Positions 1,858-17,324 of a stretch of 64,000 nucleotides of DNA are shown here, piece by piece. A program made the position numbers and the translations under genes. The notes beneath the pieces are model-generated. The model had not been told where the DNA came from. It ran no database searches and was given only the letters and a program-made list of their open reading frames with translations. Source of the DNA: Candidatus Micrarchaeia archaeon (lineage in GTDB: Archaea; Micrarchaeota; Micrarchaeia; Anstonellales; J096); assembly GCA_041500865.1 (NCBI GenBank), contig JBGQMY010000003.1, positions 6,728-70,727 of the forward strand, given 5' to 3'. Positions within the stretch are counted from its first letter, which is position 1. Each line of letters opens with the position of its first letter.

Positions 1858-2994
1858 TCATGCTGCAATGCATTCGTTGAATGATACCATGAACGCGTTC
1901 CCCCCAATCGCAAACAATTCCATTAATTTGAGGAACTCCGCGGTGTCGGTGTATCTGGTATATGGGTTGTTGGGGTCTGCGGCCTTGTGCAGGGCTGTCT
2001 TGCCGCGATTGTCCTTTGCGTTTATGAATTCCTTTAAGTCCCCGTCTGTTTTTGCGTATTCGTCTATTAGCAATTTGCAGAAGTTGGTTAATCCGTATTG
2101 TGCGGCCTCGTGCAGGGCTGTCTTGCCGCCTTTGTCTTTTGCGGCAATCAGTTCCTTTGCGTCCCCGCCGGCTTTTGCGTATTCCTGTATCAGCAGCAGG
2201 GCGACGTCCTGGATAAGCCCAGACCGCGGAGCATTGTGCAGGGCTGTCTTGCCGCCTTTGTCTTCTGCGGCAATCAGCTCCTTTGCGTCCCCGCCTGCCT
2301 TTGCGTATTCCTGTATCAGTAGGGAGCATAATTGTGCCTCTTTCGAAGCTGCGGCCTCGTGCAGGGCTGTATTGCCGCCCGTGTTCCTTGCGGTTATGAT
2401 TTCCTTTGCGTCTCCGCCGGCTTTTGCGTATTCGCCTATGAGCAGGATGCCGATTTCAATATGCCCTTCCCATGCGGCATGGTGCAGGGGTGTGGTGTCA
2501 TAGTAATTGTCCTTTGCGGCAATCAGTTCCTTTGCGTCCCCGCCGGCTTTTGCGTATTCGCCTATGAGCAATTTGCAGGTTTCGGCGTGTCCCTTTTCTG
2601 CGGCATCATGCAGGGCTGTACCTTTACACTTGTCCTTTGCGGCAATGAGTTCCTTTATGTCGCCGCCTGCCTTTGCGTATTCGCCTATGAGCAGGGCGCA
2701 GGTTTCGGCGTGCCCATCCAATGCGGCATGGTGCAGGGGCGTCTTGCCTTCATTGTTTCTTGCAAGGACTGAATGACGGTCCTTATCCTTTGCAGTCATG
2801 TCCGCGCCTGTCTTGATGAGCCGCAGCATCTTTGCATTGTTGCCATTCTTTGCGGCGCTGATAAGCGCATTGTCAAGCCTTCTTCCGGCAAACAGCCTCC
2901 TTATCGACCGCGCTGCCGATGCCAGCACCTCCCTTGTGCGCTCCAAATGTTTTTTGGGCTTGCTGGCCTGCCGTGGCCTATGCCGCTGCTCCAT
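1858..2994 (-). CDS. ankyrin-repeat protein with C-terminal …FMVSFNECIAA tail
   Basis: 378 aa; about 8 ANK repeats (TPLHHAAxxGH…LLI); upstream region nearly identical to that of 790..1734. Confidence 0.8.
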   Translation of the reverse strand: MEQRHRPRQASKPKKHLERTREVLASAARSIRRLFAGRRLDNALISAAKNGNNAKMLRLIKTGADMTAKDKDRHSVLARNNEGKTPLHHAALDGHAETCALLIGEYAKAGGDIKELIAAKDKCKGTALHDAAEKGHAETCKLLIGEYAKAGGDAKELIAAKDNYYDTTPLHHAAWEGHIEIGILLIGEYAKAGGDAKEIITARNTGGNTALHEAAASKEAQLCSLLIQEYAKAGGDAKELIAAEDKGGKTALHNAPRSGLIQDVALLLIQEYAKAGGDAKELIAAKDKGGKTALHEAAQYGLTNFCKLLIDEYAKTDGDLKEFINAKDNRGKTALHKAADPNNPYTRYTDTAEFLKLMELFAIGGNAFMVSFNECIAA

Positions 2995-5277: not shown

Positions 5278-5413
5278 TGCCAAGGGGGGGACTCGAACCC
5301 CCGACCTCTAGATGGCCCAAAGCGTGCCTATCATCGCCGTTTTCCAACGGCTCAGCACTCACAAAAGCGTGTTTTATGAGTCTAGCGCTCTAAGCCGGCT
5401 GAGCTACCTTGGC
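5278..5413 (-). tRNA. tRNA-Met/CAT-anticodon tRNA with ~60-nt intron at canonical 37/38 position
   Basis: Minus strand reads GCCAAGG-TA-GCTCAGCCGGCTTAGAGC-G-CTAGA-CTCATAA-[intron]-TCTAG-AGGTC-GGGGGTTCGAGTCCCCC-CCTTGGC-A. Confidence 0.75.
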
Positions 5414-11675: not shown

Positions 11676-12779
11676 TCATACGGCTAATTCCTTGGCAAAT
11701 AGCCTATTGAATCTTTCCACGACTCTTTTCCTGAAATTATAGCTATTTGCAAATCTGGCATAAGCAAGCCAGCCTTCCAGGCTTTTCACTATTTCTTCCC
11801 TGTTCATCTCTCCTTTATCGCATTTCCGTTTGAACATGTCAAGGCGCTCCCAGATTCTTCTGGCATTGCTCTTCTTGAGAAGCCGGTACCCATGAAAAAT
11901 CCTGAAGCCAAGAAATGCTATGCCCCGTTCCAATGGAATAATGCTGGACTTTTCAGGATGGAGCCTTATCTTGAGCCGGTATGCCAGAAACTCGCTTATT
12001 TCAGCGTTCCACATTTCAAGCATTTTCCTGTCCCTGTGCAGAATCACGAAATCATCCACATAGCGGATGTAATATCTGGCCCCAAGCCGCTCCTTTGCAA
12101 AATGGTCGAATCCGTTCAGGTATAGATTGGCAAAGAATTGCGAGGTCAGGTTTCCAAGGGGCATCCCTTTCCCATGAACTTCAGCTTTGTGGTTTGCCAA
12201 TATCATTCTTACCAATTGCATAATATCCGGATCCTTTATTTTACGGCTAATCATCTCCAATAGGATTTCATGTTCAACTGTCGCAAAATAATGCAGAATG
12301 TCCGCCTTGAGGGCATATCCGCAGCAAACGGATTCTTCATCGCTAGGCTCTTTTTCTGCTTTTGGCTTGCAGAAAGAGACCGCGCGCATGAACCGCTCCA
12401 GTCTCCGTATCGCATTATGCGTTCCCTTGCCTTTCCTGTTGGCAAATGAGTCAAAGATGAAATCCTTTTCAAAAATGGGCATTATGACGTTGCATAATGC
12501 ATGGTGCACAACGCGGTCCCTGAAATGGGACGCGCTTATTTTTCTGGTCTTTGGGTCCCTTACGAGGAATACAGTTGGCGGGCGAGGCGAATAGGCAAAT
12601 GCCTTCAGCTCGGATTCCAATTGCCTGAGATTATTTTCAAGATTGGATTCGAACTCAATTACATAATCCTTCAGCGTTTTCCTTTTTCTGGCTTTCTGAA
12701 ATGCAAGCTTAAGGTTTTCATAGGAGCAAACCTGCGGATAAAGATGCCTGTAGGATTTCATGGGTTTCGCCAAGCGCAC
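11676..12779 (-). CDS. diversity-generating retroelement (DGR) reverse transcriptase
   Basis: 367 aa; RT motifs incl. DGR-specific 'LGNLTSQFFANLYLNGFD' (replaces QG of intron RTs) and 'YIRYVDDFVI' (YxDD); TR lies immediately 5'; GTG at 12779 or ATG at 12761. Confidence 0.85.
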   Translation of the reverse strand: MRLAKPMKSYRHLYPQVCSYENLKLAFQKARKRKTLKDYVIEFESNLENNLRQLESELKAFAYSPRPPTVFLVRDPKTRKISASHFRDRVVHHALCNVIMPIFEKDFIFDSFANRKGKGTHNAIRRLERFMRAVSFCKPKAEKEPSDEESVCCGYALKADILHYFATVEHEILLEMISRKIKDPDIMQLVRMILANHKAEVHGKGMPLGNLTSQFFANLYLNGFDHFAKERLGARYYIRYVDDFVILHRDRKMLEMWNAEISEFLAYRLKIRLHPEKSSIIPLERGIAFLGFRIFHGYRLLKKSNARRIWERLDMFKRKCDKGEMNREEIVKSLEGWLAYARFANSYNFRKRVVERFNRLFAKELAV

Positions 12780-12790
12780 AGATAAATGCC

Positions 12791-13050
12791 CCTAGGGTGC
12801 AAGCCCAAGTCATTCCGAACGCATTGGACGGCCTGTAGTTCGCGTTGACGTTCTGCCTGTTGTTGCCGTTGTTGTTGACGTTGCGGACCAGAAGGCCTCA
12901 AGAGTAACCCGTCTGCCACAATGGCACTTTCGTGCCAACACCGCCGCTTCACGCTTTCAATCCATGATTTACTCAATGTCGCGGCTGAATCCCATGTCTG
13001 GCTTTAACCAGCACTGCAGACAGGTGTGTGGCCTAGGCTTGCACCCTAGG
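12791..13050. repeat. 15-bp perfect inverted repeats (cctagggtgcaagcc / ggcttgcaccctagg) bracketing TR plus ~135-nt spacer
   Basis: 12791-12805 is the exact reverse complement of 13036-13050; could form a long-range stem enclosing the TR RNA. Confidence 0.5.
12809..12898 (-). repeat. DGR template repeat (TR)
   Basis: ~90 nt homologous to 13315..13404; coding-strand reads …CGC AAC GTC AAC AAC AAC GGC AAC AAC AGG CAG AAC GTC AAC GCG AAC TAC…; all differences from VR are at TR adenines. Confidence 0.75.
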
Positions 13051-13076
13051 AATAGGGAAAAGGATGGAAAGCTTAT

Positions 13077-13988
13077 TTAAAGCGCTTTCCCTACCGCATC
13101 CAGGAATTCCCTGATTGGCGCTACGATCTGGGCGTCGATTATGCCAGGCATCCTGCCAACAGCGCTTACAGCCCTATTATATGCGGCTTTCAGCTCATCA
13201 GCCGAGATGCCGGGCACTTTGATAATCGTCTCTTTTTCAGCCGGTTTTCCTGACTGAACATTAGAGGCAAGAAGCGCCTGGATTTTTTCGGTGTCCCCTT
13301 CGGGGACTTCCAACGCCACCCCGAACGCACCGGACGGCCCGAAGTACGCGTAGACGCCCTGCCTGCCGTAGCCGAGGTCGTCGACGACGCGGACCAGAAG
13401 GCCCACATATGAAGAACCATTCAGCCTCCAAAGATATCTTGCATCCGGGCTTTGCGGCACCTTGTCTCCATGCGGAACGCCTGTTTCCTTATGCGGCATG
13501 TACAAGCCATCAGGACCTGGGAATTCTGGAACCGGTATCAGCCTGTCTTTTGAAATGTCCAAAACCATTGAATCTCCGTCTTTCTGGAAATCTTTTGAGG
13601 TTAGACCCAGTGCCACAAGCGCAACGTTCTTTTCGCCCTTATAATCCCCTGTTGTCGGCAAAACTATCCTTGAACCGTCTCCTGCGGAAAAGACTATCTC
13701 CTTTCCCAGTCTAACGCCTGGCTTTTCATAGGCGATTGAGGCGTCAACAGCGAAAGGCGTCATTGGAACCAAGCTTCTCCATGTCGCTCCAACGTTAAGC
13801 GCAACATCCGCTGTGTTATGGGATATGACTAGGCAATTGGTTCCATGCACATTGTTGAATTCCTCAACTAAAGGATGGGCATCAAAAAGCTTTGTTGTTC
13901 CGCTGTTCCTTAGAATCAGTATGTTCTTCTTTTGTCCGTTAGCCTCTAACTTTATCAGTTCCTTTCCAGCAATTTGGATTTGTGACAT
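13077..13988 (-). CDS. DGR target protein (variable protein; uncharacterised family, paralog of 59364..60158)
   Basis: 303 aa; contains the VR at aa ~196-225 (…VRVVDDLGYGRQGVYAYFGPSGAFG…); adjacent to TR-RT on same strand. Confidence 0.75.
   Translation of the reverse strand: MSQIQIAGKELIKLEANGQKKNILILRNSGTTKLFDAHPLVEEFNNVHGTNCLVISHNTADVALNVGATWRSLVPMTPFAVDASIAYEKPGVRLGKEIVFSAGDGSRIVLPTTGDYKGEKNVALVALGLTSKDFQKDGDSMVLDISKDRLIPVPEFPGPDGLYMPHKETGVPHGDKVPQSPDARYLWRLNGSSYVGLLVRVVDDLGYGRQGVYAYFGPSGAFGVALEVPEGDTEKIQALLASNVQSGKPAEKETIIKVPGISADELKAAYNRAVSAVGRMPGIIDAQIVAPIREFLDAVGKAL
13293..13307 (-). promoter_or_regulatory. GC hairpin 7 nt downstream of VR 3' end (IMH-associated stem-loop)
   Basis: gtcccc-ttc-ggggac: 6-bp GC stem, 3-nt loop, positioned as in characterised DGRs. 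Confidence 0.5.
13315..13404 (-). repeat. DGR variable repeat (VR) inside target gene
   Basis: Matches TR except ~20 positions, each where TR coding strand has A (TR AAC -> VR GTC/GAC/CTC/TAC/GGC/TTC codons). Confidence 0.75.
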
Positions 13989-14097: not shown

Positions 14098-14679
14098 ATG
14101 TCCAAACCGATAAAGGGAACACAGACGGAAAAGAACCTTCTCAAGGCATTTGCCGGCGAATCCCAGGCAAGGAACAGGTACACGTTCTTCGCGTCCGAGG
14201 CAAGGAAAGCCAATTATGAGCAGATATCCGCGATATTCCTTGAGACCGCAGAAAACGAGAAGGAGCACGCAAAAGTATTTTTCAAATACCTGGAAGGCGG
14301 GGATACTAAGATAACTGCGACTTATCCTGCAGGAAGGATAGGCACGACCGCGGAGAACCTGCTTGAGGCGGCAGACGGCGAGAAGCTAGAATGGGGCACG
14401 CTATACCCGGAGTTCGAGAAAGTCGCAAGGCAGGAAGGCTTTCCGGACGTTGCAAGCTCGTTCAAGGAGATAGCCGAAGTCGAGATGCACCACGAGCAGA
14501 GGTACAGGGCGCTGCTGGACAACATCAAGACCGGCGCGGTGTTCAAGAGGAAAGGGGACGCCGTGAGGTGGAAGTGCAGGAACTGCGGCTACATCCACGA
14601 AGGGCCCGAGGCGCCAAACCAGTGCCCGGCATGCAAGCATCCGCAGGCGTATTACGAGCTGCTGTGCGACAACTTTTAG
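14098..14679 (+). CDS. rbr: rubrerythrin (ferritin-like diiron domain + C-terminal rubredoxin CxxC…CxxC)
   Basis: [11 protein letters not shown]…EHAK…EMHHEQRY diiron ligands; C-terminal CRNCGY…CPACKHP. Confidence 0.85.
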
Positions 14680-17224: not shown

Positions 17225-17324
17225 GGGCTCGTAGCTCAGTCGGTAGAGCGACGGTCTTATATGGCGCGTTCTAGCACAAACCTAAGTTAGCCGTAGGTCC
17301 TGGGTTCAAGTCCCAGCGGGCCCA
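17225..17324 (+). tRNA. intron-containing tRNA, apparent anticodon TAT (Ile)
   Basis: GGGCTCG-TA-GCTCAGTCGGTAGAGC-G-ACGGT-CTTATA-[~27-nt intron]-A-GCCGT-AGGTC-CTGGGTTCAAGTCCCAG-CGGGCCC-A. Confidence 0.7.

Follow-up and report, generated by a model that had tools for sequence, protein, structure and literature searches.

The prototype diversity-generating retroelement (DGR), that of Bordetella phage BPP-1, is ordered mtd-avd-TR-Sp-brt, and the spacer (Sp) downstream of its template repeat (TR) forms two adjacent duplexes: TR:Sp, which places the priming adenosine, and avd:Sp, which involves the segment upstream of TR. The first cellular archaeal DGRs to be described were those of Nanoarchaeota SCGC AAA011-G17 (Paul et al. 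2015, PMC4372165). In these elements the initiation of mutagenic homing sequence reads TGGGGT in the variable repeat (VR; IMH) and TGGAAT in TR (IMH*), and GRA-triloop hairpins are found, with the hairpin lying within the target gene (PMC4372165); the variable protein of a nanoarchaeal DGR is AvpA (PDB 5IOO, PMC5006420). The arrangement TR-(avd)-RT, where RT is the reverse transcriptase, accounts for 90% of a set from the candidate phyla radiation (CPR) and DPANN archaea, and 29% of catalogued DGRs lack an accessory gene (Wu et al. 2018, PMC5758913). Here we describe an element in a 64-kb stretch of contig JBGQMY010000003.1, labelled Candidatus Micrarchaeia archaeon; "the window" denotes this whole stretch. 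With a probability of roughly 85%, the element is an intact chromosomal DGR of the DPANN-archaeal type, arranged in the order target gene (with VR), RT-16 RNA, TR and RT gene.

The repeat pair supports this assignment. On the minus strand VR (13404..13315) and TR (12898..12809) align over 90 nucleotides (nt) without a gap at an offset of 506, and a position-by-position table lists 21 mismatches, every one at a TR adenine and none at any other base. A preliminary description of the locus had reported, from an alignment by eye, a copy of about 90 nt with about 20 mismatches confined to TR adenines; the full tabulation bears this out (21 of 21), and the TR and VR codon strings quoted there are correct. 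Altogether 21 of the 28 TR adenines are altered in VR (A to G 14 times, A to T six times, A to C once), and the probability that 21 randomly placed mismatches would all hit the 28 adenines is about 7e-15. The outermost mismatch, at 13404, is probably flank; counted as such, it leaves a repeat of 89 nt with 20 mismatches.

VR sits in frame within the 3' part of the target open reading frame (ORF) 13077..13988, as is usual for DGRs. Nearly all changes affect the first or second position of a codon, in nine AAC codons, one AAT codon and a few others. No stop codon is created, since a TR with AAY codons does not give rise to them. Thirteen codons are altered, all within 201-224; the preliminary description had about 12 variable codons at amino acids (aa) ~196-225. 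It had also let the homology stop abruptly at both ends. At the 3' end this does not hold, as the likeness trails on in an imperfect tail (GGAATGAC-TTGG versus GGGGTGGCGTTGG). When both strands of the window were scanned with any base allowed at adenines and up to 12 other mismatches, only TR itself and VR 13315-13404 were recovered, with no second VR.

The sequences flanking the repeats match those expected of a DGR. The putative IMH and its non-identical counterpart IMH* differ as CGGGGT (VR) and CGGAAT (TR), and the GC-rich hairpin that the preliminary description placed 7 nt beyond VR is found there, with a 6-bp stem. In related loci the GGGGU versus GGAAU contrast is found again, and GRA-triloop hairpins likewise come after VR. 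As the IMH/IMH* contrast and the GAA hairpin match those of nanoarchaeal DGRs and recur in related loci, the window element belongs to the known DPANN class of DGRs. With the nanoarchaeal elements it further shares the RT clade, a TR directly upstream of RT, the location of the hairpin in the target gene, a predicted C-type lectin-fold target and an RT-16 upstream of TR (82 bits in the nanoarchaeal locus L019). It differs from them in its host, which is probably a member of the Micrarchaeota, and in its target.

The RT provides further evidence. The ORF runs 11676..12779 from a GTG at 12779, but the closest homologues begin at the ATG at 12761, and the gene is therefore taken as 11676..12761, encoding 361 aa. 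Both motifs named in the preliminary description, LGNLTSQFFANLY and YVDD, are present and conform to the DGR-clade pattern [L/I]GxxxSQ plus YxDD. In a comparison with all PDB sequences, the 328-aa Bordetella phage RT (bRT, 8ub7_A; E 7e-48, residues 8-355) ranks first; in it, IGSLTSQLFANVY aligns with LGNLTSQFFANLY and YMDD with YVDD.

We collected 80 related loci by an RT-alignment scan with one genome per species; each carries at most 4 kb of flank, some being shortened by contig ends. Their labels are nearly all DPANN (Micrarchaeota, Nanoarchaeota, Woesearchaeota, Aenigmatarchaeota, Pacearchaeota), and the RTs of AAA011-G17 (L019, L073), 52% identical to that of the window, are among them. 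A scan for adenine-confined repeats places TR just upstream of RT in 49 of the 80 loci, with VR mostly 300-600 nt further upstream. RT homologues number more than 7,800, mostly from DPANN archaea and including the SCGC AAA011-G17 elements of 2015, so that the preliminary description overstated the interest of a DGR in an archaeon as such. DGRs are already well known in DPANN archaea; the target represents a new sequence family on a usual fold. The window element is a clean, complete example in a DGR-rich clade.

Table 1. Features of the DGR locus in window coordinates.
Feature	Position	Strand	Details
Target gene, 303 aa	13077..13988	-	N-terminal domain, predicted C-type lectin-fold domain bearing VR, optional C-terminal helical extension
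VR	13315..13404	-	Target codons 195-225; 13 codons differ from the TR-encoded sequence
IMH-like VR 3' end CGGGGTGGC	13315..13323	-	TR counterpart CGGAATGAC
GC hairpin GTCCCC-GAA-GGGGAC	13293..13307	-	GRA triloop; 7 nt past VR; within target coding sequence (VPEGD codons)
TATA-like box TTTAAATA	13074..13081	-	Overlaps target stop codon; lies ~27 nt before the RT-16 start; predicted template-RNA promoter
Closing helix, 5' strand UUCCUAGGGUGCAAGCCUAGG	13032..13052	-	Pairs with 12789-12809
RT-16 (Rfam RF03019)	12899..13050	-	62.4 bits against a gathering score of 50; model 1-158 of 158; 5' domain of DGR template RNA
RT-16 junction 8-mer CUAGGCCA	13029..13036	-	Consensus ..GGCYA then CAC; pairs with TR tail 12805-12812
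TR	12809..12898	-	28 adenines; nine AAC and one AAT codon in target frame; 3' end IMH*-like CGGAATGAC (12817-12809)
Closing helix, 3' strand CUUGGGCUUGCACCCUAGGGG	12789..12809	-	Last TR base into TR-RT spacer
DGR-type RT, 361 aa	11676..12761	-	Begins 47 nt after TR; Pfam RVT_1 E 3e-17

The target protein has no family in Pfam or NCBIfam, in agreement with its earlier description as uncharacterised. It has 46 homologues; all named ones come from Candidatus Micrarchaeota, and the family appears confined to this phylum. An AlphaFold model built from the family alignment (predicted local distance difference test score 91.8) indicates a C-type lectin fold as in known DGR variable proteins. The structure prediction proposed in the preliminary description thus places VR on this fold and not on a novel scaffold, as far as the model goes. 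Compared to AvpA, the target comes from another, unnamed 46-member family, with 9% identity in the structural alignment, and bears an optional C-terminal helical tail. Most homologues stop about 20-25 aa past VR, which identifies the 75-residue tail of the window protein as an optional helical extension; the tail had been considered atypical for C-type lectin targets, but the position of VR is typical once the family is aligned.

The family alignment also shows where the protein varies. Of the 13 TR-adenine codons, 12 have an entropy of 2.6-3.5 bits (codon 224, 0.45), compared to about 1.2 bits for the scaffold. The difference is significant (Mann-Whitney p 2e-7), and the columns of highest variability in the folded part are among these codons. 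Across the 46 members of the family, hypervariability is limited to TR-adenine codons.

We then characterized the RNA between the target gene and TR, which the preliminary description had overlooked. RT-16 spans the 152 nt from the target stop codon to the first TR base. The match covers the full length of the RF03019 model above its gathering score, and both the CUACAC-type junction and the AGUA/GAA internal loop are kept. Only 6 bp are left of the first hairpin of the model, and its strands pair instead with the TR tail and the spacer beyond. Of the 58 related loci scanned for RT-16, 49 carry it. In 37 of the 39 cases with an adenine-mismatch TR detectable after RT-16, the window counted, TR starts between -6 and +33 nt from the RT-16 3' end, and in 26 of them within 4 nt. 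RT-16 is one of 19 motifs reported near RT genes (Weinberg et al. 2017, PMC5737381); of these, RT-10, the Bordetella spacer, alone was attributed to a DGR, and the others, including RT-16, were given no role. Sarcin-ricin-like loops have been reported for both RT-10 and RT-16. In the searchable library we found no literature linking RT-16 to DGRs. We now assign it the role of 5' domain of the archaeal DGR template RNA.

A TATA-like box precedes RT-16 at a conserved distance. In 49 loci such motifs occur 23 times at -31 to -28 from the RT-16 start and at most three times at any other position. This fixed distance suggests that the template RNA starts at the closing helix described below, and the box is predicted to be its promoter. 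A bacterial promoter and terminator scan, of a type unsuited to an archaeon, gave no enrichment. As a side observation, the insertion region of the Rfam RT-16 model holds in the window a GGCAC-GAAA-GUGCC hairpin with a GNRA tetraloop (12923-12936, minus strand), and two related loci (L083 and L087) have GGUAC-GAAA-GUACC in its place, a compensatory change.

The two ends of the template RNA are complementary. Just past TR, GGCUUGCACCCUAGG (12805-12791) is exactly complementary to the 15 nt with which RT-16 starts, CCUAGGGUGCAAGCC (13050-13036), and counting G-U pairs the closing helix extends to 21 bp (13052-13032 with 12809-12789). It is contained in both the minimum free energy and the centroid fold of the 296-nt RNA (12765-13060). 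In related loci, complements of the RT-16 5' end (GUCCYRGC and variants) lie 8-65 nt past TR and are commoner than in control windows of the same locus. Sixteen of the 39 loci reach p<0.05 individually (Fisher combined p 1.3e-12).

A second pairing connects the RT-16 junction with the TR tail (URGCC..), starting directly after the GGAA of IMH*. To assess it, the two strands were chosen independently by regular expressions in 49 loci. Of the junction:tail cells 72% are paired, compared to 61% in shuffled and 23-43% in slid controls, and the covariation score of 0.373 (0.203 shuffled) was not reached in any of 500 shuffles. Compensatory pairs comprise GGCUA:UAGCC, GGCCA:UGGCU, GACUA:UAGUC and GGUUA:UAACC. 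The RNA pairings are thus supported by both thermodynamics and covariation.

These data suggest a model for the element. A template RNA comprising RT-16, TR and a short spacer would be transcribed from the TATA-like promoter overlapping the target stop codon and would probably continue into the RT message. Its first ~21 nt would pair with the last TR base and the next 20 nt, and the RT-16 junction (..GGCCA then CAC) with the TR tail just 3' of the IMH* GGAA. These pairings may close TR into a loop and place its 3' end in a duplex resembling a primer:template. The RT would copy TR to cDNA, misincorporating opposite adenines, and the cDNA would replace VR, with homing directed by the IMH (GGGGU) and the GAA-loop hairpin downstream. 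The expected outcome is a C-type lectin-fold protein with new residues at ~13 positions of its ligand-binding face. In this scheme we infer the transcription start, the chemistry of priming, homing and the current activity of the window copy.

The comparison with BPP-1 bears on the role of RT-16. Both systems have the signature of adenine-specific mutagenic homing, homologous RTs (E 7e-48), a C-type lectin-fold target (as modelled for the window) and an IMH with a downstream hairpin, and in both template RNAs the TR 3' end and the segment upstream of TR lie in duplexes. In contrast, the structured RNA of the window is 5' of TR, while the 140-nt Bordetella Sp (Rfam RT-10) is 3' of it. The TR-RT spacer of the window measures only 47 nt, and the strand pairing with the TR 3' tail comes from upstream and not from Sp. 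There is no avd beside the element or elsewhere in the window, and the target is a chromosomal cellular protein rather than a phage tail fibre. Given the same two-duplex logic with the pairing strand provided by the upstream domain, we infer that RT-16 corresponds in function to the Bordetella spacer but sits on the opposite side of TR.

One might extend this, tentatively and with the odds rather against it, to a permuted template RNA in DPANN DGRs, mostly Avd-free, in which RT-16 5' of TR both positions and primes, its junction (..GGCYA then CAC; A13029) giving the priming hydroxyl. The evidence backs the pairings and the linkage between RT-16 and TR; priming from the junction is put forward as a hypothesis only. 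The main added value of the locus is that the orphan Rfam motif RT-16 finds a place in the archaeal DGR template RNA, where its pairings with the TR 3' end are defined. Avd is lacking in about a quarter of DGRs, and a compact RNA-plus-RT unit offers a concrete model of cDNA priming that is testable by mutation.

Several observations weigh against an intact DGR. Avd is found in about 74% of DGRs and is essential in Bordetella, where bRT is inactive without it, and of the 127 window ORFs that are 85-175 aa long, none matches Avd (PF05635, PF22296). The closest relative (L083; same target-RT-16-TR-RT layout, target 58% and RT N-terminus 74% identical, RT-16 49.7 bits, post-VR hairpin kept) does have a 124-aa Avd-family gene (2049-2423, minus strand; PF05635 E 1.5e-14), which lies divergently 570 nt upstream of its target. 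In the window a rubrerythrin gene (14098-14679) holds that place. The earlier statement that no Avd-like accessory ORF is present is thus confirmed for the 64 kb only. As for the RNA, Rfam draws nt 1-33 of RT-16 as a local hairpin, in competition with the long-range pairing, and the fold z-score of the whole RNA is modest (-2.6). No signal peptide or membrane segment is evident in the target sequence as judged by eye. Finally, no VR variant of the window target is on record: its 90% cluster is a single sequence, and an exact look-up returned the identical protein on two contigs (JGI 3300053059 and GCA_041480205.1). When JGI metagenome contigs were searched with TR as the pattern and N in place of each adenine, nothing matched, not even the source contig, and the search therefore says nothing on activity.

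The missing Avd and the lack of recorded VR variants might indicate a DGR that was inactivated recently, with its parts looking intact, diversification ended for instance by loss of Avd, and VR the frozen record of the last homing event. Decay is indeed common in the target family. Four of five further homologues looked up (P0013, P0022, P0037, P0046) have no RT within 3 kb, and TR was not found in the three RT-less homologue loci with DNA available (L084, L085, L086). L084 has lost both the post-VR hairpin and the IMH GGGGU, with a VR that is still variable-looking; these three loci and the P0013 contig look like frozen former targets. In addition, in seven cluster pairs the VRs are identical and all differences lie outside them, in the scaffold or at the termini, and the RT of the related locus L087 is truncated.

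Other members of the family provide direct evidence of diversification. The cluster mates P0008 and P0167, versions of an orthologue 58% identical to the window target, are identical except in VR. At the DNA level their two assemblies (L087, NCBI GCA_043816005.1; L088, ENA ERZ928008) differ by 13 nt in the 906-nt gene, all on TR adenines, while the 640 nt downstream of the gene are without difference (~1.5 kb compared in all). These alleles are direct evidence of mutagenic homing in that orthologue. The allele differences, the pairs with identical VRs and the RT-less orphans together show that the target family holds live and frozen copies.

We consider recent inactivation of the window copy unlikely. 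TR and VR show not a single non-adenine difference across 89 nt, the RT ORF is neither truncated nor lacking any catalytic motif, and IMH, hairpin, RT-16, closing helix and TATA-like box all appear intact, which argues for activity. The absence of Avd nearby is the norm of the clade, as no Avd-family ORF was detected within ~4 kb of the RT in 77 of the 80 related loci. Among 118 small free-standing ORFs in these loci, up to 4 kb on each side of the RT, three match PF05635. In the genomes of avd-less DGRs, Wu et al. (PMC5758913) found no avd at another location, and their architecture A1, a target-TR-RT core without accessory gene, resembles the window element. Locally, the window element is thus Avd-less, as are most members of its clade. 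Since conservation among Avd proteins is poor, we relied on Pfam scans; phmmer and an iterated hidden Markov model started from the L083 Avd and run against all ORFs of L001-L086 and the window returned the query itself only.

Two candidates for an Avd function were considered. A 72-aa basic ORF (12758-12976, minus strand) crosses the 3' part of RT-16 and TR, matches no family and most likely represents a different reading frame of TR. In 2015, ORFs located like this one were flagged as Avd-like by isoelectric point and size alone. The idea that RT-16 substitutes for Avd is weakened by three loci (L021, L037, L083) that carry both RT-16 and Avd-family genes.

The orthologous element of L087 and L088 shows further peculiarities. 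Its TR (L087 1513-1645) is split by a 48-nt insertion (1551-1598) flanked by an AGG repeat, VR is without the insertion, and the adenines to which the 13 allele differences map are spread over both TR halves. Either the insertion is spliced out, or the RT bypasses it, or it is irrelevant because another TR acts in trans. An archaeal bulge-helix-bulge intron was rejected, the flanking exons not being complementary and the fold being unremarkable (z -0.4). The L087 RT (1696-2298) ends at about residue 200, before LGNLTSQ and YVDD, and an opposite-strand gene then follows; the local element looks dead, though the VR alleles differ between the assemblies.

Returning to the template RNA of the window, RT-16 could instead be a 5' leader regulating the RT gene, with the complementarity around TR being a DNA-level inverted repeat. 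RT-16 usually precedes the RT gene, and the 3' strand of the closing helix stops 5-30 nt before the RT start codon, where it could affect translation. However, in six loci (L014, L015, L048, L049, L050, L052) the RT-16-TR unit is opposite in strand to the RT and TR still directly follows, which ties RT-16 to TR and not to the RT gene. Furthermore, the helices hold G-U pairs and covary, their sequences varying among loci with pairing maintained, as in RNA pairing and not in DNA repeats, and the pairing partner is TR's own 3' tail beside IMH*. A leader function is therefore very improbable, and we retain the template RNA. In the same six loci, and also in L010 and L038, the RT-16-TR unit lies 1-2 kb from the RT on the opposite strand with its own VR upstream, and represents either another cassette architecture in the same RT clade or a second DGR nearby.

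That the RT is part of a group II intron, a retron or a defence system, and the 90-nt repeat an unrelated duplication, is already contradicted by the results and has a negligible probability: source annotations of RT homologues do read 'group II intron' or 'retron-type' RT, but the NCBIfam matches are far under their cut-offs (group II intron RT/maturase TIGR04416, 149 bits versus 300; retron St85, 43.5 versus 235; Drt2-5, 18-64 versus 200-550), bRT leads the solved homologues by 28 orders of magnitude in E-value (next group II intron RTs, 6e-20, and a retron-type RT, 2e-18), the mismatches are restricted to TR adenines (P ~7e-15), no Rfam group II intron RNA family matches anywhere in the window, where RT-16 is the sole RNA beside the RT, and the RT family is tied to TR/VR pairs at dozens of loci. 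The preliminary view of the enzyme as DGR-like is thus supported, and none of the refutation tests put forward there spoke against a DGR.

The DGR is surrounded by housekeeping genes, namely those for rubrerythrin, TspO, a glycosyltransferase and a type-2 isopentenyl pyrophosphate isomerase-like protein, which places it on the chromosome and not in a provirus. Archaeal genes in the window include those of ribosomal proteins S6e and S24e, aIF5A and PAC2. Two tRNAs found by Rfam (17225-17324, plus strand, 100 nt; 5278-5413, minus strand, 136 nt) are not listed by ARAGORN in its bacterial setting and are presumably intron-containing archaeal tRNAs. About ten related loci (L007, L010, L013, L016 and others) are labelled 'uncultured Methanosarcinales archaeon', and L055 (DAIQOR010000001.1), which shares the layout of RT, RT-16 and TR/VR, bears the label 'bacterium'; these labels are at odds with the otherwise DPANN-only distribution and may be binning or labelling errors. 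Among the small ORFs of the window, Pfam detects HigB-like and ParE-like toxin domains, which suggests a toxin-antitoxin pair.

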